Assembly (NCBI GenBank): GCA_900550645.1
Contig: URTA01000004.1
Span: forward strand, 29,832-93,831
Source of the DNA: an uncultured Porphyromonadaceae bacterium
GTDB taxonomy: Bacteria; Bacteroidota; Bacteroidia; Bacteroidales; Muribaculaceae
Length of the DNA stretch: 64,000 nt
Reading direction: 5' to 3'
Shown piece by piece: positions 6,681 to 45,668 of the stretch. The translations under genes were made by a program, and so were the position numbers. The first letter of the stretch is position 1; each line of letters begins with the position of its first letter. The notes under the pieces are model-generated. The model saw only the letters and a program-made list of their open reading frames with translations. It made no database searches and was not told where the DNA came from.

Positions 6681-6767
6681 GGCGCAGCCAAAAAGAAAAA
6701 ACAAAAAATGCGGCTGATATTTGCGTGGTCGGGAAAAAGGTATTAACTTTGCAGTCGCTTAGGCACT

Positions 6768-8209: not shown

Positions 8210-9556
8210 TCATTCGAGGTGGATAGCTGCTGGGTGCAGTACCTTCCAGCAGTTGTCCTCGAAAATGGCGGAGCCGGCAGTGTCGGTGACTATGCGAGAG
8301 CAGGACTCTGCGCCGGCGAGAGAGGGGGCTTCACACGCACCGTATAGTGTGGTCTGTGCGTCGAGCGACACAAGAGCCACGACCGAGGGGTCAGACTCGA
8401 CTGTGAATGACCCCGTCAGCCCATTGGTGGTTGTGAGGCGGTACACGGTCTTGCCGGGAGTCACCTGTCGGTCTGCGCGGACGAAAACGCGGTTGCGGTT
8501 AGCGCGGCCGAGGTAGATAACCTTTTCAGCACCCTGTGCCGGCTGCTGGCGTGTCGGCGCTTGTCGCGGCATAGCGGCAGGCTCTGCGGATTTTTCACGC
8601 ATGGACTGCAATTGCTGTTGCAGCTGGCTGATGCGGGAATTGAGCTGGTCTGCTTGTGAGCGGGCTTCCTGCTCGGCGGCTCGGCTGTTGTCGAGGGCGC
8701 GTCGCAGACGCTCGATCTCCTCATTCTTGGCTGCAATGGTGTTGGCATAGCGTGCTTGCATCTCCTCGATCCCGGTATCGGCAGCAGCGGAAGGAGCGTA
8801 TGAAGGCTCTGGTTGTGGAGCATATTTCTCTTCCTGCTCCGAGGGTTCGGCTTTCTTCCGCTTTTCGGGAGATGACTGTTGTTGCTCTGGACCTTTCATA
8901 GCACGCATTGCGTATAGCACGAGCCAGATGACGATGCCGATGAGGACGATGAGCAGGACGACGTAAATCCAGGTGCTTGTTGAGCCCTGGTCTGCTTGCG
9001 CCACCTCTTCTTCGGCTGATGTTTCTGCCGAAGAGGAGTCAACAGCCTGAACTGGGGCTTCTTGTGCAACGGTCTGTTCGGTCGGTGCAGTTTGCGGCTC
9101 TTGCTCCTGCGGCTGTTCCTCTGGTTCGGGCTTTGCCGCAGAGGGTTCAGTGACCGACATCGTGCTGATGCGGGCTTTGATAGTATTGTTGCGGCTCTGT
9201 TCCGCCTTTTTGCTTAGGTTGGCGTTTTGGAAGAAAGTCTTGCTCCAATAGTTTACGAGTTGCTCCTTGCCCCAAGAGGGGTAGTCCTTGCTGACGGGAG
9301 CTGCGAGGAACTGCTTGAGGTTGTCCGCATCGGCTTGGTGTCCTTCGACCATAGAGCGCAGTTCCTTTGTAGACTTTGCTTTTTTGCCGTCGAGGTAGTC
9401 CGACTTGTCGTTGGTGTAACGCAGGTAGACTTGGGCTGCCACGGCGCGTGCGTGGTCCCATTCCTCATCAGTTACGGCATGTGCCGCGAGCGAGGGGAGG
9501 CAGATTGCGGCGGCGAGAAGTCCGCGCAACAGTATTCTTGACGGAGATGTTTTCAT
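8210..9556 (-). CDS. Hypothetical bitopic protein (signal peptide, Q/P/E-rich linker, central TM helix, coiled coil, C-terminal globular domain)
   Basis: Signal peptide MKTSPSRILLRGLLAAAICLPSLAAHA. TM segment WIYVVLLIVLIGIVIWLVLYAM. Heptad-like QLQQQLQ region. No family recognised. Confidence 0.5.
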   Translation of the reverse strand: MKTSPSRILLRGLLAAAICLPSLAAHAVTDEEWDHARAVAAQVYLRYTNDKSDYLDGKKAKSTKELRSMVEGHQADADNLKQFLAAPVSKDYPSWGKEQLVNYWSKTFFQNANLSKKAEQSRNNTIKARISTMSVTEPSAAKPEPEEQPQEQEPQTAPTEQTVAQEAPVQAVDSSSAETSAEEEVAQADQGSTSTWIYVVLLIVLIGIVIWLVLYAMRAMKGPEQQQSSPEKRKKAEPSEQEEKYAPQPEPSYAPSAAADTGIEEMQARYANTIAAKNEEIERLRRALDNSRAAEQEARSQADQLNSRISQLQQQLQSMREKSAEPAAMPRQAPTRQQPAQGAEKVIYLGRANRNRVFVRADRQVTPGKTVYRLTTTNGLTGSFTVESDPSVVALVSLDAQTTLYGACEAPSLAGAESCSRIVTDTAGSAIFEDNCWKVLHPAAIHLE

Positions 9557-9692
9557 GATGATTTGGTCAGTGAATTGTTTTGCGCTGCAAAGTTACATCA
9601 ATGAGTTGAGAATATCGAATGTGTCGTGTAAAAAGTTACGGAGAATGATGATAATCTCCGTAACTTTTTACACGTCTGCCGTAGCGTTTGCG

Positions 9693-35777: not shown

Positions 35778-38700
35778 TCATTGTTCAGCCGGAGCAGCTT
35801 CCTCTTCCGGCTGTGTAAGTTTTTGCGCCGCTTCTTGCTGCGGCGTTTCGGCGGGAGTCTCTTGCGGAGCTTCTTCCGAGGGAGTTCCCTCAGCCGGTTC
35901 AGGCGAAGGCTCTTCTGCCGGTGTTTCAGCGGGTTCTGCCGCTTGCTCGGCTGCGGCCTCGGGCGTTGGCTCTGTAGCCGCGTCAGGCTCTGTGGCATCG
36001 TCTGTCGTGCCTACGACAGCCTCCTCGGTCTGCTCGACGGCAGCCTTCTCCTCGTAGCGGAAGTATTCATCGAAAGAACGTCCCTCGCGCAGCAACAGTT
36101 CAAAGTTGGGGCGGCTTATCATTATAGGTCGCACAGCCTCTGGCAATACCGTCTGCGGAGCCTGTGCCAGGACGGTGCGGTAATGCTCCAGCTGGCGCAC
36201 GTTGGCAAAACCTTTGACTATCAGCAGCCCGACGTTGCCGAAAGCCATTTGCTCCAAGTCGAAGTCCTGCGTGGTGAATGTCGAGAAGTTGAAGCGAGCC
36301 ACGTCATAGAGCAGCTGGTTGGCGTTGATGGAGTCACGCGGGAATGCCAGCACGAGATACTGCGGCGAGTTGGGGTCATGCTCGAAATTTGCAGGCTGCC
36401 CATTGGCATCCGTAGGCGTGTCGCCGCCGTCGGCCGTGAGGCGTGTGTCCCAGAGCATGCCTCGGCTGTTGCCCTGGCCGCCCTTGATGGTCATGCCCTG
36501 CTTTAGGTTTTTCAGCATGCCCGAGGCCATTTCGGTCATGTCGGTGTCAGGCCACTTCTCGAGCAGCTCCTGCAGCCGCTCGCGGAACTTCTCGGTGTTG
36601 CCCTCTGTTACGTAGCTCAAAGCGTCGAGGAACACGAATTTCGGCATCAGCGGCGACAGCGGGTATTCCTCCGTCACGTCAGCTACGAGCGAGCGCACGC
36701 GCTTGTTCTCGTTGTTCAGGTACGCCTGGTATGTCTCGGCATACATTTCCTCCTGCCGTATGTACATGCGCCGCAGGTTGTTGAAATAGGAGGGGTCTGC
36801 CATGGCCTTGCCGTAGGTGCTTTCGGCGAAATCAGTCAGTATCTTGCTGCGCCAGCGTTCAGCCTCGGCGGTGTCCTCCTCGCGTACAGCCATGAGGTAC
36901 ATGTTGTAGTATACGTCGAGGCGGTAGATGTTGTCGGGATAATTCTCCTCGAGGCGGTTGAACTCGTTGCGGGCCGAGGGGTAGTCGTCGAGCTTGTCCT
37001 TGAGTATCACGCCCATGTTGTAGAGGCCTTCCTGTATGATGTCGTTGCAGTTCTGTATCTCCTCTTCGGTCTTGGGTATCTGCGCCAGGTAGTACTCTAT
37101 GTTGTGCGGGTCGGAGGCTGCATTGATGCTGTCGGCTGCGGCACGCTCCTCGGGCGAGGCGTTGGCGAGCGAGTCCGGCACTTCGCTGTCGGTGTCTGAT
37201 ATTTCGTCGAGCGAGAACGTATTCTTGTTGCGCCGCCGCCAGTCGTCCTCGAGCTTGCGTGCGCCCCACCGCTTCTGAAACTCCTGTTTGCCGGTGTTCT
37301 TGGCCTGTGTGTTGTAGAAATACCACGACTTGTCGGTATTCATCTGGTACTGCTGTGGGGCGTTCTGGTTGGTGTTCTGGTTGCCCTGGGCGCGTTGCTC
37401 GGCGAGGTATTCCTCGCGTTTGGCGGCTTCCTGCTCCTCCTTCTCGCGCTTCTTCAGCTCGTCCACGAGTTTTTGGCACGCTTTCTCCTGCTCCTCCGGT
37501 GTCATTTTTGCGAGCGTGAGCAGCGAGTCCTGCAGGTGCACGTTGCCGGCGTATGTGCTGAGTTCGTCCAGCACGTCGCTGCGCCGCTTCAGCACCTTAT
37601 AGTCCGGATAGTTGTCATTGAGTTGTGGTATGGCCTCGGAATAAAGCGGCTGCGCCTTGACATAGTCGCCCATGGTGAAGTAGATGCCGCCCAGAGCCAC
37701 CTGCGCCAACGCCTTGTCGATGCCGTTGCGCGTCGATTTCTCGATGGCGAGTGCGTAGCTTTTGATAGCCTCCGTGCTGTCGCGGCGTGACAGGTAGAGG
37801 TTGCCTATGGCGTAGTATATCTGGTCGAGGTACTCGTTGTTGCGGCCGTAGCGGGCCATGCGCCTCAATGCGCTGACTTCGCCCTTGATGTCCGTGCCGG
37901 TGAATACCTCGCTCTGCTTGATGCGTGCGTTGAACTTGGCGCGGTATGGTGTCGATGCGCCTCCACCGGCCTTCTGGTAGGCATAGTAAGCCTTGCTCTT
38001 GTCGCCGAGGCGCGAATATACCTGCCCGAGCAGGAAATACTGTCGGTTGCGCTGTGTGCCGTGGCTTCCCTCGGCAGCGCGTTGCAGGTAGGGAACAGCC
38101 TGCTCCAGCCGGCCGGCGCGGACTGCGAGGTCTGCCTGTACCACGTCATACTGGTGTCGCAGCGACTTGGTTGTCAGCCGCCGCTCATCTATTTTCTGCA
38201 GAATGTTTTCCGCTTCGTACTGCCAGTCCATGGCGCAGTATGACCATGCCTCCCACAGCTGTGCCTCCGTGACCGTCTGCGGCAGCCATGTGAAATGCTT
38301 CCCGATGTAGAAGAAAGTCGCCGCCGCGCCCAGAAAGTCGCCGCCGAGGAACTGGCTCTTGCCCATGAGCATCCACGCATTGTGCAGGAACGGGTTGAAC
38401 TCGTCGCGGGCGCGGAACTCTTTCTCCTTCTTCGAGCCGGACTTTTTCGCTGGCTTTTTCTTGATGGAATGGAGCTGTATGGCCTTCTGCATCTTCTCGA
38501 TAGTGCGCTTGAAATCGCCTTGCGGCTGCGGCAGCTTGCTGTTGGCACGAGCCTCCGCCGGGTGCATCATGACAGTGCGCGTGTAGTCGTCCTCATAGCC
38601 TTGCTCCATGGTTTTGAGCGTCTCTATATAGTGCTGCGAGCCGTTGAAATATACGTTGTAGCGAGTGTTGAACGCCTGCCAGTTGCGCGACATGGCGGTG

Positions 38701-38804
38701 TTCTTCTTCGTGGAACAGGCACACAGACACACCAGCACAGCCGCACACAGCAGTGCCAACGAGGCGTATCGCACACGAAGCGTTCCTCCGCTCATGGTCT
38801 TCAT
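35778..38804 (-). CDS. sprE: TPR-repeat lipoprotein, PorW/SprE-like (T9SS component), with acidic Pro/Glu/Ala-rich C-terminal tail
   Basis: Lipobox CACS followed by TKKNTAMSRNWQAFNTRYNVYFNG, which resembles the SprE family N-terminus. Multiple TPRs. Lies immediately upstream of the PorX-like gene. Confidence 0.55.
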   Translation of the reverse strand: MKTMSGGTLRVRYASLALLCAAVLVCLCACSTKKNTAMSRNWQAFNTRYNVYFNGSQHYIETLKTMEQGYEDDYTRTVMMHPAEARANSKLPQPQGDFKRTIEKMQKAIQLHSIKKKPAKKSGSKKEKEFRARDEFNPFLHNAWMLMGKSQFLGGDFLGAAATFFYIGKHFTWLPQTVTEAQLWEAWSYCAMDWQYEAENILQKIDERRLTTKSLRHQYDVVQADLAVRAGRLEQAVPYLQRAAEGSHGTQRNRQYFLLGQVYSRLGDKSKAYYAYQKAGGGASTPYRAKFNARIKQSEVFTGTDIKGEVSALRRMARYGRNNEYLDQIYYAIGNLYLSRRDSTEAIKSYALAIEKSTRNGIDKALAQVALGGIYFTMGDYVKAQPLYSEAIPQLNDNYPDYKVLKRRSDVLDELSTYAGNVHLQDSLLTLAKMTPEEQEKACQKLVDELKKREKEEQEAAKREEYLAEQRAQGNQNTNQNAPQQYQMNTDKSWYFYNTQAKNTGKQEFQKRWGARKLEDDWRRRNKNTFSLDEISDTDSEVPDSLANASPEERAAADSINAASDPHNIEYYLAQIPKTEEEIQNCNDIIQEGLYNMGVILKDKLDDYPSARNEFNRLEENYPDNIYRLDVYYNMYLMAVREEDTAEAERWRSKILTDFAESTYGKAMADPSYFNNLRRMYIRQEEMYAETYQAYLNNENKRVRSLVADVTEEYPLSPLMPKFVFLDALSYVTEGNTEKFRERLQELLEKWPDTDMTEMASGMLKNLKQGMTIKGGQGNSRGMLWDTRLTADGGDTPTDANGQPANFEHDPNSPQYLVLAFPRDSINANQLLYDVARFNFSTFTTQDFDLEQMAFGNVGLLIVKGFANVRQLEHYRTVLAQAPQTVLPEAVRPIMISRPNFELLLREGRSFDEYFRYEEKAAVEQTEEAVVGTTDDATEPDAATEPTPEAAAEQAAEPAETPAEEPSPEPAEGTPSEEAPQETPAETPQQEAAQKLTQPEEEAAPAEQ

Positions 38805-38839
38805 CTAATGGATAACGGCGCTTGGCGGCTGATTATTGC

Positions 38840-39127
38840 CTACTTTTTGCGCCGTTTGCCGCGTCTGCGGAAATGGTCGTTGTACATCTTGATGCCGAAT
38901 ATGACTGCGCTGCACAGGAATGTTATGGTGTTGGTGACCACCAGCGGGACGTTGCCGATGGCGATGCCCTGGACAGTGAAGAACAGTGCACCGAGTCCCA
39001 TGAGCAGGAACGTCGGCACGGCGATGCTGTCCGTCTCGCGGGTGCGGATAGTGTACACGGCTTGCGGCAGGTATCCGAAAATCATACATACCGCCGCTAT
39101 CGTCCCGGCTACAGATGCAATGTCCAT
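38840..39127 (-). CDS. SemiSWEET/PQ-loop family sugar transporter (3-TM)
   Basis: 95 aa. Three TM helices. PQ motif (YLPQAVYTIRTR). Confidence 0.7.
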   Translation of the reverse strand: MDIASVAGTIAAVCMIFGYLPQAVYTIRTRETDSIAVPTFLLMGLGALFFTVQGIAIGNVPLVVTNTITFLCSAVIFGIKMYNDHFRRRGKRRKK

Positions 39128-39266
39128 TGTAGTTTCAGATTTTGGTATATACCATGTAACGAACCCTTATTCAATATCGTATAGTCCTCCCTTGTTGCAA
39201 GCTGTGTGGCAATCTTGGTTTTTTTGACTATATTTGCAGCGTAAACACAACAACATTTTCTGCGTA

Positions 39267-39845
39267 ATGCCTAAATTAATAACTTATCTACTGACCATTG
39301 GCATGATTGTATTGGTGCCGATACTGTTGCTTGGATATTTGATTGAAGGATTTTGGTGGGTCATTTTGTCAGTTGCTGTAATTGGCGGAATTGTATGGTA
39401 TATAGTACACTTACATGATAAGTTGAAAGAAGAGCGACTATATAATGAGTATTTGATGGCATCTGCTCAAAAAGAAACCAGAGAGGAAGCAACTCAAAAA
39501 CAAATAAGAGAATTGAACAATAAAGTCGGTGAGAAAGGAGACTACATAGAATATTATGATGCGGTTGGCAAACCTCATTTGGTCGGGTTATTTTGGCGTA
39601 CTCAAAATATTCTATTGTTTGATAGGGTCTGCAAATTCGATGATCTTAAATCTATTTCTTGTGGCAAGCAGTTTATGGCATCCAATGTACTTGGTGTTGT
39701 TACTCTGCGTGGAGAAATTCGACTTACAATCTCAAACAAGGAAAAACTAATCGAAATTCACGCCATAATCTCTACTATAATCAAAAATAACAGAGGCTCG
39801 CAGAGTGCAGGAGTTAAGCCGTGTCATCTTCCGTTCACGTGGTGA
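39267..39845 (+). CDS. Hypothetical membrane protein (2 TM, then coiled coil and a small C-terminal domain) in an AT-rich islet
   Basis: ATG at 39267 (MPKLITYLL). Two N-terminal TM helices. No family recognised. Local GC is far below the window average. Confidence 0.5.
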   Translation: MPKLITYLLTIGMIVLVPILLLGYLIEGFWWVILSVAVIGGIVWYIVHLHDKLKEERLYNEYLMASAQKETREEATQKQIRELNNKVGEKGDYIEYYDAVGKPHLVGLFWRTQNILLFDRVCKFDDLKSISCGKQFMASNVLGVVTLRGEIRLTISNKEKLIEIHAIISTIIKNNRGSQSAGVKPCHLPFTW

Positions 39846-40245
39846 CGAGGCTACTCTTCCGACTGAACCTCTATATGGTTTTGCGAAATTGAAAATGTGT
39901 AAATTGTTGCAGGAGGCTGCGAATACAATTTCGGATAAAATTAAAGTGATGAACGAGCGTGATACCATCATCGCATCTTGCGTTGTCTGTAGAAAACGAA
40001 GTGTTGTCAGATGTGAACTGGGCCGTTCTCAAGGCCAATCGACAATTAAGCTCATTGTCTTTTGGGGACACAACGGCTCGACATTCAAAGATACTGGTGA
40101 CTACATAAACGCCCCAGACGTTGCCAAAGTTGTTGTCGGAGGGAGTTTGGAACAAAATAAGGATTCTTCTGTTTTTGTCAAAGGTATTCCGAGGCTATAT
40201 AATTGTCGTTCGGCTGCATCACTGGGTGACCTGTTTCAAATCTAA
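39805..40245 (+). CDS. Hypothetical small protein in the AT-rich islet
   Basis: The ORF track start is a GTG. The true start may be a downstream ATG (MCKLLQEA or MNERDT). No family recognised. Confidence 0.4.
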   Translation: MQELSRVIFRSRGDEATLPTEPLYGFAKLKMCKLLQEAANTISDKIKVMNERDTIIASCVVCRKRSVVRCELGRSQGQSTIKLIVFWGHNGSTFKDTGDYINAPDVAKVVVGGSLEQNKDSSVFVKGIPRLYNCRSAASLGDLFQI

Positions 40246-40246
40246 G

Positions 40247-40792
40247 TCAGTACCCTCGCTCTTTGCGGCGCAATGCATACATGCGCTCTTTGAAGCCCCC
40301 AGAGCGCATGAAATCCGTCTCAAGGCGTTCAAGTTGCCGAAACAGCAGGTAGTCGGCCTGGTTAATCAGGATTATGGTCATATTGGCGACCGTATGGTCG
40401 GGTCTTGTTTCGGCAAGTTGCATGAAATATTCTGCATCGTTGTGAGTGCGTCCGAGCCGGCGCATCGCTTCATATTCGGCACTTCCGCGTTCCCATTGTC
40501 GCATATTGTGCGTTTTCAGGTAGTCCTCGAAATCCTCAAGAAGTTCTTTCAGGCTTGCTTTTGCCACATTCACCAGTTTTATTTCCGTAGCTGCAGACGT
40601 GGCAGAAGCTGCGCATCCCTCGATGATGTTTTGTTTGCCGCTGCGGGCAGCTTGTACCATTTGGTCGATGGTGCGGTCTCCCTTGGCTAGGTATTTGTGG
40701 CAGAAGAAGTAGGTCAACTGGAAAATGGCATCGGCTTTCTGATATGACAGCAACTCCTTGTAATTGCCGCTGTGCCTCACCAGCTCGCCCAT
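40247..40792 (-). CDS. Four-helix-bundle protein (TIGR02436/Avd-like) with C-terminal suffix domain
   Basis: N-terminal YKELLSYQKADAIFQLTYFF pattern typical of the four-helix-bundle (bAvd-like) family. 181 aa fits the variant with a suffix domain. Confidence 0.55.
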   Translation of the reverse strand: MGELVRHSGNYKELLSYQKADAIFQLTYFFCHKYLAKGDRTIDQMVQAARSGKQNIIEGCAASATSAATEIKLVNVAKASLKELLEDFEDYLKTHNMRQWERGSAEYEAMRRLGRTHNDAEYFMQLAETRPDHTVANMTIILINQADYLLFRQLERLETDFMRSGGFKERMYALRRKERGY

Positions 40793-40824
40793 GACGAAAG
40801 ATTTTTAAGATGATTAGTGTGATT

Positions 40825-40851
40825 AAAGTCCTTAAGGTCTCTAAGGACTTT
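40825..40851. terminator. Hairpin AAAGTCCTTA...TAAGGACTTT downstream of tRNA-Gln
   Basis: 10 bp perfect inverted repeat read from the sequence, directly 3' of the minus-strand tRNA. Confidence 0.45.
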
Positions 40852-40872
40852 AAAGACCTTAAAGATAAGTAG

Positions 40873-40943
40873 TTGTCTTACCAGGATTCGAACCTGGACA
40901 AGCAGAACCAAAAACTGCTGTGCTACCATTACACCATAAGACA
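40873..40943 (-). tRNA. tRNA-Gln (anticodon UUG), tentative
   Basis: Reverse complement folds as acceptor TGTCTTA/TAAGACA, D-arm GTGTAATGGTAGCAC, anticodon stem GCAGT/TCTGC (one U-U pair), loop TTTTGGT, T-arm CCAGGTTCGAATCCTGG. The anticodon reading depends on loop register. Confidence 0.55.
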
Positions 40944-41190
40944 ATCCATTACTCCAGCGAACACCTATAAATAATAAAAACGTAAAAAACCAATTCGCTA
41001 AAAGCAGTGCAAAGTTACGGCGTTTTTCCGTCTCCTGCAAGTGCCAGGCGAGGGCTGAGGCTGTTGGTGCTGCGGTATTACGCATTTTTAACGTGGCTCG
41101 AAACATTATGTCGCCGTTATGAACTACTTTTGCAGAGCATAAATGCGCCTGGGCAGAAGCCCTGCGCGTAACACAACTATTTATTTCTAT

Positions 41191-41781
41191 ATGGACAAAC
41201 TGAGTTATTCCTGGGGACTCGCCATGGGTCAGCAGCTGCGCGGAATGGGCGTAAAGGATTTGAACATCGAAGATTTCACCAACGCCGTTAGATGCGTTTT
41301 CGAGAACAAGGAGCCGGAAGTGAAGCCGGAGGAGGCACAGCAGGTCATCAATGCATACCTGCAAGAGCTGGAGGCCAAGGCTACGAAAGTCGCAAAAGAG
41401 GCCGGCGCGAAGTTCCTTGAGGAGAACGCGAAGAACGAGGGCGTAAAGGTGACTGCCTCGGGACTGCAATATACAGTCGAGAAAGAGGGTACGGGCGCGT
41501 CGCCCAAAGCCACTGACGAGGTGACGGTGCACTACACCGGACGCTTGCTCGACGGCACAGTCTTCGACAGCTCCGTAAGCCGTGGCGAGCCTGCAACATT
41601 CCCGCTCAACCGCGTCATCCCCGGCTGGACAGAGGGCGTGCAGCTGATGAAGGAGGGCGGCAAGTATATGTTCTTCATCCCGAGTGAGTTGGCTTACGGC
41701 GCACAGGGAATACCGAACGCTATCCCCCCGCACTCGACTCTGATATTTGAAGTTGAACTCATCAAGGTGATAAAGAAATGA
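41191..41781 (+). CDS. FKBP-type peptidyl-prolyl cis-trans isomerase (FklB-like, no signal peptide)
   Basis: FKBP core [18 protein letters not shown]...[28 protein letters not shown]...[10 protein letters not shown]. Confidence 0.8.
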
Positions 41782-42541: not shown

Positions 42542-43453
42542 ATGAAACTGAAACTGTTTACCGCAGGAGCGGCCATGTCCCTCCTGCTGCTGGCTTCCTG
42601 CGACGGCGGCAACGTCACAGGCAAGGACATCAAGGAGGCTGGCGTTTCAAACACCACAGACTCGCTCTCATATTATGAGGGTATAAGCGCAGCATACATG
42701 TTTGAGCAGATGGCTCAGCAGGACACCACGCTCAAAACAGATGCCGGCCGTGCTGACTTCATAAAGGGTCTGCGTGCGGCAATGGAAATGTTTGACGGCA
42801 AGTCATAGGCATACATCGCGGGTCTCACTGCCGGAGTGCAGGTGGCTATGACAAACAAGAACTTCAAAAACGAGCTTGAGCTGAACATCAACAACCGCAT
42901 CATGCTGACAGGTCTGGCATACGCTCTTCAGAACGACTCGATAACCAAGGACCCGCAGGTCATGCAGCAGTTCCAGACGCTGATGCAGCGTCTTCAGGAA
43001 GAGAAGATGAAGAAAGACCATGACGCTGCCGTCAAGGAGATGGCTTCTCTCGCACACAAGGGCTATACTGCCAGCGGAGAGGGCATGATGGTCAAGGTGT
43101 CGAAGCCGGGCAGCGGCGAGACCCTGAAAGAGGGTGACCGCGTGAAGGTCAAGCTGGCTGTCAAGGAGATGAACGGCAAGGCTGTAAACCTGCCGCAGCT
43201 CCCAGAGGAGGTGGTCGTAGGACGCTCTTTCGGTTTTGACTCTCCGATGGCAAAGGCTATTGCGACGATGAGGATGGGCGAGACCGCGACATTCGCGTTC
43301 CCCGCAGTGGACATGTTCCGTGGCGGGCAGAAGCAGTACGGTCTCGAGAACAACAGCGTGCTGCTCTTTGAGGTGTCAACCCTCGGGCTTGCTCCCGCAG
43401 AAAAGGATAACGCTGCGCCTCTCAAGGTTGAGCCTGCCAAGCCTGGCAAGTAA
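42542..43453 (+). pseudogene. FkpA-like FKBP isomerase lipoprotein interrupted by an in-frame TAG at 42806..42808
   Basis: ORFs 42542..42808 and 42836..43453 are in the same frame. The N-terminal dimerisation-like segment (SLSYYEG...FDGKS*AYIAGLTAGVQ) continues through the stop into a degenerate FKBP domain. Confidence 0.5.
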
Positions 43454-43575: not shown

Positions 43576-43603
43576 CCTTTTCTTTTCTTTTATATTACTG
43601 CTG

Positions 43604-43676
43604 TGACCCCGGAGGGGCTCGAACCCTCGACCCACTGATTAAGAGTCAGTTGCTCTACCAACTGAGCTACGGAGTC
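43604..43676 (-). tRNA. tRNA-Lys (anticodon CUU)
   Basis: Reverse complement GACTCCGTAGCTCAGTTGGTAGAGCAACTGACTCTTAATCAGTGGGTCGAGGGTTCGAGCCCCTCCGGGGTCA. Anticodon stem ACTGA/TCAGT with loop CTCTTAA. Confidence 0.8.
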
Positions 43677-43985
43677 TTGCTTTGACCATGTTTCCCTGTC
43701 AAAATCGATGCAAAGTTACTGCCTTATTTCGACATGGCAAAATTTTTCGGCATCTTTTTTTGCTGATTTTTCTTCAGCTTGGTGCATTAATCTGATTGTC
43801 ACTGTATTATGCTTGAAAAATATTTTGCCGATTTTTGCCGCGAAAATTTTTCTCCCCCGAGATTGCGTGTGTGTGAAAAATAATTCCTATCTTTGATGCA
43901 AATATTAAACGCGAGTGTGCGCGTGCCTGTACTATACCTCAGGACAGGTGTGTGCAGCCGCAGCAAAAACAAGGAAACAACAGAA

Positions 43986-45668
43986 ATGAACAAAGGAATG
44001 ATTTGGCTCGGGCTGGCGGCGGCAATGGTCGTCATGACGGGCTGCAACAAGAAGCTGTCAAAGTTTGAAAGTGACTTTTTCAACACCACGCCGCGTCCTA
44101 TCGAGACTGTCGGCAGCAACGTCCCGGCTACCGTGACCGGGCGCATCCCGGCAAAGTTCATGGTCAAGAACGCCAAAGTGACTGCAACCCCGGTGCTGCG
44201 CTGGGACGGCGGCGAGGCTCAGGGCGAGCCTACGGTGTTTCAGGGCGAGGATGTACGCGCCAACGGACAGGTGGTGGGCTATGCTGACGGCGGCGTAGTG
44301 CAGATACCCTACAGCGCGGAGTACGAACCCGGTATGGCGCAGTCTGACCTGTGGCTTCAGTTCCAGGTAGACCAGAAGGGCAAGATGTACGCTTTGCCGG
44401 ATGTCAAGGTGGGCAACGGCGTGATTGCCACTTCCACTCTCGCCTCCGCCAAGACGGTCACCCCGGCTGTCGCCAAGGACAATTTCCAGAAGGTCATCAA
44501 GGAGCAGTATTCTGCCAACATACATTTCCTCATCAACCAGGCCAATGTGCGCACCTCGCAGACATCGTCGCAGCAGTACATCGACCTGCAGAAGGAGCTG
44601 CGGGCTGCCGCTGCCGCTCCTGACCGCGAAATCACGGGCGTGGAAATCAACTCATTCGCTTCTCCCGAAGGTTCGTATGATTTCAACGAGAAGCTGGCTG
44701 CACAGCGCGAGAAAAACACCACCGCAGTTGTGGAAGGTCAGTTGAAGAAGGACAAGATACAGGAGTTCGGCGAGCTGACCTCGTCGTTCACCCCCGAGGA
44801 CTGGGAGGGATTCCAGCAGCTCGTGGAGAAGAGCAACATCCAGGACAAGGAGCTTATCCTCAGCGTGCTGAAGATGTACAAAGACCCCGAGGAGCGCGAG
44901 CGCGAAATCCGCAACCTCTCGTCGGTGTTCAACGAGCTCGCCGACCAGATACTGCCGCAGCTGCGCTACTCGCGCATCGTGGCTTCGGTCAACGTGATCG
45001 GCAAGAGCGACCAGGAGATGGTAGACCTGTTCAACAACGAGCCGTCAAAGCTGAATGTTGACGAGATGCTCTACCTTGCCACCCTCACCAACGACAACAG
45101 CAAGAAAATGGAGGTCTACAACCGTGTTTGCGAGCAGTTCCCGCAGGATTACCGTGGCTTCAACGACCTGGGCATGACACAGTATGTCGCCGGCGACTAC
45201 CGCGCTGCCAAGGCCAACTTCGAGCAGGCTCTGCGCCTCAACCCGCAGTCGAAGGAGGCGGAGATGAACATGGGCCTCATCTCGATGCTCGAGGGCGACA
45301 TGGACGCCGCAGCGCAGCGTCTTGGCGCGGCTGCATCAGTACCGGAGGCCGGCGACGCGCTGGGCGTGTACTACCTCACACAGGGCGACCTGAACAAGGC
45401 GGTGTCCTCATTCGGCTCTGCCAAGACCAACAACGCGGCTCTGGCGCAGATACTCGCCAAGGACTATACCGCTGCCCGCTCCACACTCTCTGCCATCAGC
45501 AACCCCGACGCGACGACATACTACCTCGCCGCTGTCCTGGGCGCACGCACCGGCTCGGAGAACATGGTGATGACCAACCTGCGCCACGCCGTGAAACTTG
45601 ACCCCTCAATGCTGCAACGCGCACGCAAGGACCTCGAGTTTGCCAACTACAGCCTCGGCAGCCTCTGA
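43986..45668 (+). CDS. Lipoprotein with OmpA-like region and C-terminal TPR repeats
   Basis: Lipobox MTGC after MNKGMIWLGLAAAMVV. Central OmpA-like segment (EINSFASPEGSYDFNEKLAAQRE). C-terminal TPRs. Confidence 0.55.
   Translation: MNKGMIWLGLAAAMVVMTGCNKKLSKFESDFFNTTPRPIETVGSNVPATVTGRIPAKFMVKNAKVTATPVLRWDGGEAQGEPTVFQGEDVRANGQVVGYADGGVVQIPYSAEYEPGMAQSDLWLQFQVDQKGKMYALPDVKVGNGVIATSTLASAKTVTPAVAKDNFQKVIKEQYSANIHFLINQANVRTSQTSSQQYIDLQKELRAAAAAPDREITGVEINSFASPEGSYDFNEKLAAQREKNTTAVVEGQLKKDKIQEFGELTSSFTPEDWEGFQQLVEKSNIQDKELILSVLKMYKDPEEREREIRNLSSVFNELADQILPQLRYSRIVASVNVIGKSDQEMVDLFNNEPSKLNVDEMLYLATLTNDNSKKMEVYNRVCEQFPQDYRGFNDLGMTQYVAGDYRAAKANFEQALRLNPQSKEAEMNMGLISMLEGDMDAAAQRLGAAASVPEAGDALGVYYLTQGDLNKAVSSFGSAKTNNAALAQILAKDYTAARSTLSAISNPDATTYYLAAVLGARTGSENMVMTNLRHAVKLDPSMLQRARKDLEFANYSLGSL

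Follow-up and report, generated by a model that had tools for sequence, protein, structure and literature searches.

Gene organization of the islet

The DNA analysed here is a stretch of 64,000 nucleotides (below, the window) from contig URTA01000004.1 of an uncultured human-gut Porphyromonadaceae bacterium of the Muribaculaceae (assembly GCA_900550645.1). It includes an AT-rich islet containing an orphan gene, here designated ISL. ISL is flanked on the left by a SemiSWEET gene and on the right by a four-helix-bundle gene, here designated 4HB, which is followed by a tRNA-Gln gene (Table 1). The gene order PorW-like TPR protein, SemiSWEET, ISL, 4HB, tRNA-Gln, FKBP is the same in the window and in the contigs of its relatives. 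The flanks of the locus are core genes: type IX secretion system PorX, PorW/SprE, SemiSWEET, tRNA-Gln and FKBP/BamJ-like isomerases. A preliminary description of the window had reported the AT-rich islet with its three neighbours, and all four were found where it had placed them. The islet itself stands out in composition: In 300-nt windows between 39100 and 40150 the GC content is 0.36-0.44, compared with 0.50-0.65 around it, and among all 1-kb blocks of the window 39001-40000 has the lowest value (0.405 vs. a mean of 0.566). Codon usage points in the same direction. The GC content at third codon positions (GC3) is 0.356 in ISL and 0.717±0.071 in 40 long open reading frames (ORFs) of the window, which corresponds to z = -5.1. 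GC3 of the SemiSWEET gene is 0.76 and, thus, host-typical.

Table 1. Features of the ISL locus (coordinates refer to the window)
Feature	Coordinates	Strand	Evidence or remark
SemiSWEET, 95 aa, left islet boundary	38840..39127	-	PF04193 (PQ-loop) E = 4.5e-9, NF037968 E = 3.4e-15
AT-rich islet, ~1.1 kb, ~40% GC (SemiSWEET upstream region and ISL)	39131..40245		Composition; absent from L003 and L004
TATATTTGCA, putative Bacteroidota-type -7 promoter element (TAnnTTTG)	39229..39238	+	29 nt upstream of the ISL ATG
5' half of ISL in the window strain, 192 aa	39267..39845	+	Residues 1-188 of intact P0006, then 4 out-of-frame codons and TGA
Frameshift site, CC	39831..39832	+	Single C in every intact allele of both species
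3' half of ISL, residues 189-325, +1-shifted frame (mechanical ORF 39805-40245)	39833..40245	+	Identical to the C-terminal part of P0006
4HB, four-helix-bundle suffix-domain protein, 181 aa	40247..40792	-	TIGR04258, TIGR02436, PF05635; tail-to-tail with ISL, 1 nt between the stop codons
9-nt tandem repeat TTAAAGACC, 4.8 copies, forms a hairpin	40823..40865		Tandem Repeats Finder (TRF) and folding
tRNA-Gln (anticodon TTG)	40872..40943	-	ARAGORN; Rfam RF00005, 62.3 bits

The islet holds one gene split by a one-base insertion

Two overlapping ORFs are present in the islet, 39267-39845 (192 aa) and 39805-40245 (146 aa), and the preliminary description took them for two small genes. They are the two halves of ISL, and the islet holds a single gene. 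A search with the protein encoded by the first ORF yielded two proteins of 325 and 314 residues, both of which run on through the second ORF; the database proteins P0001 and P0006 (325 aa) as well as P0002 and P0011 (314-326 aa) extend across both. The alignment locates the cause of the split: The window reads CTTCCGTTC where both relatives read CTTCGTTC, and the extra C shifts the frame after codon 188. This C is the sole disruptive difference from the intact alleles, and removal of one C restores a clean translation of 325 codons. In other strains of the species and in the sister species, the same locus carries one gene of 325 or 326 aa, and its synteny is identical in L001, L002, L049-L058 and L068-L077. 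The frameshift is situated in a low-complexity linker (…NRGSQSAGVKPCHL/RSRGDEATLPTEP…) that joins two soluble halves of the protein. Therefore, each half resembled a plausible small gene. The significance of the analysis lies mainly in this correction, by which an apparent two-gene "module" becomes one frameshifted orphan gene that annotation pipelines and first-pass readers will mis-split.

Two other explanations of the split were considered. The first, proposed in the preliminary description, regards the two ORFs as independent small genes that form a toxin-immunity or abortive-infection pair. In its favour, the window strain indeed has two overlapping ORFs on the same strand, divided within an inter-domain linker, and translation of a second polypeptide might in principle begin at an ATG (39895) or a GTG (39805). 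However, a single continuous ORF of 325 or 326 codons is found in every other allele of both species, the split is due to one inserted base in a very recent allele, and neither half matches a family of PADLOC or a toxin, antitoxin or immunity family. Two independent genes are, hence, hardly credible. The second explanation, a programmed ribosomal frameshift, was rejected because the shift is absent from all other alleles and the site, CAT CTT CCG TTC, contains neither a slippery heptamer nor a long homopolymer.

Coding capacity and promoter element

ISL is a truly coding gene, since its frame is open over 325 codons at 40% GC and the ratio of nonsynonymous to synonymous substitution rates (dN/dS) between the two carrier species is 0.37. 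In frame +1, the only stop codon is the terminal one, and the five other frames have 13-28 stops each. An open run of at least 325 codons occurred in none of 20,000 shuffled sequences, the longest comprising 176 codons. The excess of synonymous changes that underlies the dN/dS value is significant (Fisher p = 1.9e-4).

We take the element TATATTTGCA upstream of ISL to be a promoter, as it fits the established Bacteroides -7 consensus TAnnTTTG. The extended motif TAnnTTTGCA is found 13 times in the window compared to 1.28 expected copies, an approximately 10-fold enrichment. Further copies are located just upstream of tRNA-Pro, tRNA-Gln, tRNA-Lys and an FKBP gene. Across the window, copies of the motif include those at 6744, 39229, 41008 (-), 41125 and 43709 (-); altogether, the motif precedes three of the four tRNA genes and several protein genes. 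This makes it a handy marker of promoters in the annotation of this genome.

Intact, frameshifted and deleted alleles

Within the species of the window (species A), ISL exists in three states. Exact-sequence look-up located the intact allele, which encodes the 325-aa P0006, in 73 collection blocks, with an identical context in each of them. The frameshift allele is shared by L046, L047, L048 and L075, which otherwise show 0-6 single nucleotide polymorphisms compared to the window; over 6.6 kb, the window is moreover 100% identical to GCA_052281175.1, a metagenome-assembled genome (MAG) of NCBI. Because the extra C is the sole difference between this allele and intact ones, the frameshift is, judged by sequence identity, recent. 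In the third state, 1,558 bp (39131-40688) are missing. The deletion has one common junction in five distinct contigs (L070-72, L074 and L076) and takes away ISL completely, along with the region upstream of SemiSWEET and four-fifths of 4HB, so that a 4HB stump of 35 codons is left. The shared junction with its 4HB stump means that the "empty" state is derived in species A. Among about 22 long contigs examined, about 10 carried the intact, two the frameshifted and eight the deleted allele. ISL is weakly constrained and is being lost by independent routes.

The copy in the window strain is most likely a pseudogene. It can still encode the 192-aa fragment, in which the anchor, the helix and the first of the soluble halves are kept and which could have partial activity.

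Alternatively, sequencing or assembly of the source MAG might have introduced the frameshift as an artefact, with ISL being intact in the organism. The window does match a metagenome-assembled genome, the indel affects a single base of a CC dinucleotide, and the other frameshift assemblies might share the same or overlapping read sets. On the other hand, the allele occurs in four or more assemblies that were produced separately (a scaffold from ENA, a NODE contig from ENA/NCBI, a contig from Logan and a MAG from NCBI), whose names suggest different pipelines, and CC does not constitute a long homopolymer. A comparison of the window with L001 over 8.2 kb shows just two indels, the other one being intergenic, and a gene nearby carries a clean nonsense substitution, which agrees with real mutations. 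An artefact is, therefore, improbable.

This nonsense substitution is an in-frame TAG (GAG to TAG) at 42806-42808 that cuts the third FKBP-domain lipoprotein gene (42542-43453, +) in the window strain. The position reads GAG in all other strains of species A (L049-L053, L055, L056) and GAC in the sister species (L057). Together with the ISL frameshift, the window strain thus has two disrupted genes within 3.5 kb. In the deletion strains, the 4HB stump is joined directly to the SemiSWEET start codon. As the SemiSWEET upstream region is lost there, SemiSWEET must be transcribed from the tRNA-Gln/4HB side in these strains.

ISL encodes a predicted membrane-anchored orphan protein

The ISL protein is predicted to be anchored in the inner membrane by an N-terminal helical hairpin. 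Hydropathy analysis revealed two hydrophobic helices connected by a four-residue loop at residues ~5-48, and residues 1-50 are the only part modelled by AlphaFold2 with confidence (pLDDT 89-95). This bears out the two-transmembrane hairpin that had been described for the first ORF. The hairpin is followed by a long charged helix that extends to about residue 87 and by ~240 residues, for which the low-confidence AlphaFold2 secondary structure indicates β-rich segments and two helices. An internal duplication of the two soluble halves was not detected. The charge distribution around the hairpin suggests an N-in/C-in orientation that would place the ~240-residue soluble part in the cytoplasm.

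Searches for relatives returned the gene itself. An exhaustive phmmer search of 1.84 billion representative proteins found only the ISL copy of the sister species and P0003, a repetitive low-complexity protein that was rejected as a spurious homologue. A word-indexed search of 5.8 billion proteins yielded only ISL at the same locus. No relatives were detected in IMG/VR (three scans), JGI metagenomes and PDB sequences, or by tblastn in GenBank phages and PLSDB plasmids. The two halves of ISL had no match above noise in Pfam, NCBIfam and PADLOC, and the isolated soluble halves of both species did not match any Pfam family at E<=10. Consequently, the earlier suggestion of bacterial PH-like domains, for which remote-homology searches had been recommended, found no support from profile searches with either soluble half. 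Weak matches were obtained with PHROG (E = 5e-4 to 7e-3, ~17-21 bits), namely to Rz-like spanins and phage membrane proteins. Since they are limited to the transmembrane and helical segment, they are treated as compositional. A phage Rz-like spanin or holin (PHROG 214, 785) was rejected: The best match (20.9 bits) covers only residues 30-85, i.e. the second transmembrane helix and the charged helix, and there are neither lysis genes nearby nor viral relatives.

Distribution among close species and acquisition

Four close species were compared using the adjacent PorW/SprE gene as a handle. ISL and 4HB are both present in species A and in its sister species B (L002, L057). Species C (L003) has 4HB and lacks ISL; only 45 bp separate the shared motif upstream of SemiSWEET from the 4HB stop codon. 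In species D (L004) both genes are absent, and an unrelated spacer of 145 bp is found instead. L003 and L004, the two nearest other species, thus lack ISL despite a PorW protein identity of 96%; between species C and D, PorW differs by just 1.85%. Of the informative sites, 55 favour the quartet topology AB|CD, and 6 and 4 favour the two others. Remnants of ISL or 4HB above shuffled controls were not found in the spacers of species C and D. In more distant Muribaculaceae, the synteny is missing altogether.

Between species A and B, the synonymous substitution rate (dS) of ISL is 0.136, compared to 0.26-0.58 for eight flanking genes including PorX, PorW, SemiSWEET, 4HB, two FKBP genes and a 71-aa ORF. 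The dS of ISL is also significantly lower than that of the pooled right-flank genes (Fisher p = 1.3e-8). Its dN/dS of 0.37 amounts to 2-7 times that of the neighbours (0.05-0.18). Its composition, its low dS and the host-type promoter element within the insert point to horizontal acquisition of ISL, which is the best reading of these sequence comparisons. Its occurrence is confined to one narrow gut Muribaculaceae lineage, namely species A and its sister species B. The earlier view of an acquired, strain-variable cargo agrees with the GC3 outlier, the absence from species C and D, the lowest dS of the locus and the intact, missing and broken alleles within the species; ISL is neither present in all close relatives nor homologous to a housekeeping family.

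It might be argued that ISL has long been native to the genus and was lost in species C and D. Deletion at this locus does occur, as the 1,558 bp missing within species A demonstrate, and under AB|CD one loss is as parsimonious as one gain. Yet GC3 of ISL is 5 standard deviations below that of the host genes and displays no amelioration, homologues are found neither in other Muribaculaceae nor elsewhere, the dS of ISL is 2-4 times below that of all flanking genes, and the spacers of species C and D are devoid of an ISL remnant. A native origin is, thus, quite improbable.

The position of the islet on the 3' side of tRNA-Gln and its nature as AT-rich, strain-variable cargo would be compatible with a remnant of a tRNA-Gln-targeted integrative element, e.g. 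a prophage or an integrative and conjugative element, that comprises the islet with or without 4HB; the weak PHROG likeness to Rz-like spanins and phage membrane proteins could be added. Targeted integration at the tRNA had been envisaged in the preliminary description, too. However, the 22-nt 3' segment of tRNA-Gln is present only once in the window when up to three mismatches are allowed, neither significant flanking direct repeats nor long direct repeats were found in 38700-41300, and none of the flanking genes encodes an integrase, a recombinase or another mobility protein. Furthermore, 4HB intervenes between the tRNA and ISL and is present without ISL in species C. IMG/VR, phage and plasmid records contain no relative, and the PHROG matches are confined to the compositionally biased transmembrane and helical part. 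Such a remnant has, hence, little probability.

Origin, decay and possible role of ISL

ISL is probably a single-gene insertion of ~1.1 kb that was acquired, is frameshifted in the window strain and is intact or deleted elsewhere in the species. It may have come from an unsampled low-GC donor related to Bacteroidota (a phage, a mobile element or another bacterium). After the divergence of species A and B it would have been passed between them, presumably by recombination through the conserved flanks. ISL appears to be under weak purifying selection and dispensable, so that it is now being lost. As a small decaying ORFan islet, it belongs to an ordinary class of features. It illustrates on a small scale how an accessory gene of an uncultured gut bacterium comes and goes: low-GC DNA with a host-type promoter element is gained, spreads to a sister species and is lost by frameshift in one lineage and by deletion in another.

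As to its role, ISL might be a conflict-type accessory protein, for instance a phage-exclusion or abortive-infection-like membrane effector or sensor, which is the best guess, although a doubtful one. If the benefit of such a role fluctuated, this would explain why the gene is intact in some strains and frameshifted or deleted in others. Alternatively, ISL might encode an envelope or stress protein of the bPH-like type, be left over from a phage as a moron, or have no current function. It is unlikely that ISL is the first member of a new family of gut Muribaculaceae proteins which are anchored in the membrane, serve in conflict or defence and combine a transmembrane hairpin with a long helix and two cytoplasmic domains of a novel kind. 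In that case, the allele mix would be due to phages or mobile elements that exert fluctuating selection, and not to plain neutral decay. Should a defence role be true, a new family would be defined.

Several points weigh against this picture of origin and role. Only four species were compared, and a single ancestral loss on the branch of species C and D fits the phyletic pattern as well, although neither species displays deletion scars, as expected under gain. The C-terminal half of ISL alone has a dN/dS of 0.60 based on just 21 substitutions, so that constraint on this half is not demonstrated. In both AlphaFold2 runs (full length and soluble part), for which just two near-identical sequences were available, pLDDT of the soluble part was ~33-35. 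The frameshift assemblies are perhaps not independent samples, which means that the allele is reproducible across assemblers and not necessarily widespread. The guess of a defence role is burdened by PADLOC-DB 2.0, where no family matched either ISL half or the 4HB protein at E<=1, and by the flanks, which are housekeeping genes and not a defence island.

The known systems with which ISL compares closely include small, horizontally acquired islets with lineage-specific ORFan accessory genes. It shares with them the compositional outlier, the narrow range, presence/absence and pseudogene polymorphism, a relaxed dN/dS and core flanks beside a tRNA. In contrast to them, it has no mobility genes, att repeats or identifiable donor and constitutes a one-gene cargo with a host-type promoter element. 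By eye, ISL also resembles bacterial PH-domain membrane proteins (bPH_2, YdbS/YdbT-like), in which a cytoplasmic PH-like domain comes after a transmembrane hairpin: According to the low-confidence AlphaFold2 model and our own reading of the sequence, the hairpin precedes a β-rich segment that may end in an amphipathic helix (~90-175). It differs from them in that it has no Pfam or NCBIfam match at E<=10 and possesses, in addition, a charged helix (~40 residues) and another soluble domain (~130 residues). With membrane proteins encoded by phage "morons" and with single-gene, membrane-anchored proteins for phage exclusion or abortive infection, ISL has in common a small AT-rich strain-variable locus, a transmembrane anchor combined with a cytoplasmic part, and repeated loss. 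However, it has no PADLOC match, only weak PHROG matches, no defence island around it and no presence in viral collections.

The neighbouring genes and the tRNA-Gln spacer

According to its profile scores, 4HB is a bona fide member of TIGR02436/TIGR04258, the former of which had been described before: It reached 72.8 bits with TIGR04258 (cut-off 40), 30.2 bits with TIGR02436 (cut-off 24) and E = 1.4e-5 with PF05635. The family is unusually uniform and comprises at least 7,978 clusters; the matches listed are ~181 aa long and 71-78% (~75%) identical. Relatives of 4HB (L059-L067) were encountered in three contexts: after dnaK, beside a gene for a major facilitator superfamily transporter and inside type I restriction-modification operons. 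In the latter, they are located between hsdS and hsdR with overlapping stop and start codons. Because 4HB is found without ISL in species C and its relatives reside in unrelated contexts, it is a neighbour of ISL and not a demonstrated partner. Its distribution looks mobile, as it is present in species C and not in species D despite the small difference between their PorW genes. The idea that 4HB-suffix genes are tRNA-linked cassettes which recruit cargo was rejected, since the contexts of the three relatives examined are unrelated.

The TIGR02436/TIGR04258 proteins, to which 4HB belongs by scores above both cut-offs, are relatives of the accessory protein Avd of diversity-generating retroelements (DGRs) and of the proteins of 23S rRNA intervening sequences. 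A reverse transcriptase, template/variable repeats (TR/VR) and an rRNA context are absent here, so that 4HB belongs neither to a DGR nor to an intervening sequence, and this likeness is not one of ISL. A DGR at this locus, suggested by the Avd-like context, was rejected because the neighbours do not include a reverse transcriptase and a TR/VR pair was not found.

Between tRNA-Gln and 4HB, the hairpin noted in the preliminary description is present (16 bp, -19.3 kcal/mol, z = -3.9). It is a by-product of the 9-nt tandem repeat, which has the palindrome CTTAAG in its units. In L002 and L003 the array is conserved, the exact hairpin is not. Rfam did not detect anything beyond tRNA-Gln in 38700-41300. 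The element TAACTTTGCA is located at 41008-41017 (-), ~65 nt upstream of tRNA-Gln, and no TAnnTTTG element is present between tRNA-Gln and 4HB. Hence, tRNA-Gln and 4HB may form one transcription unit driven by the element at 41008-41017.

The SemiSWEET gene scored 36.4 bits with PF04193 (cut-off 22) and encodes a single PQ-loop/triple-helix-bundle unit. With the SemiSWEET_2 model it obtained E = 3.4e-15, but its 55.9 bits are below the cut-off of 80.

A second, smaller low-GC stretch (0.42-0.44) was observed at 43600-44000 around tRNA-Lys(CTT) (43603-43676) and looks like ordinary intergenic or promoter sequence. In L004, the unrelated 145 bp between tRNA-Gln and SemiSWEET (~9476-9620) include a 13-nt inverted repeat, TTACGGCAGATTT / AAATCTGCCGTAA. 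This means that the slot downstream of tRNA-Gln is hypervariable; in close relatives, it has three or more different contents.

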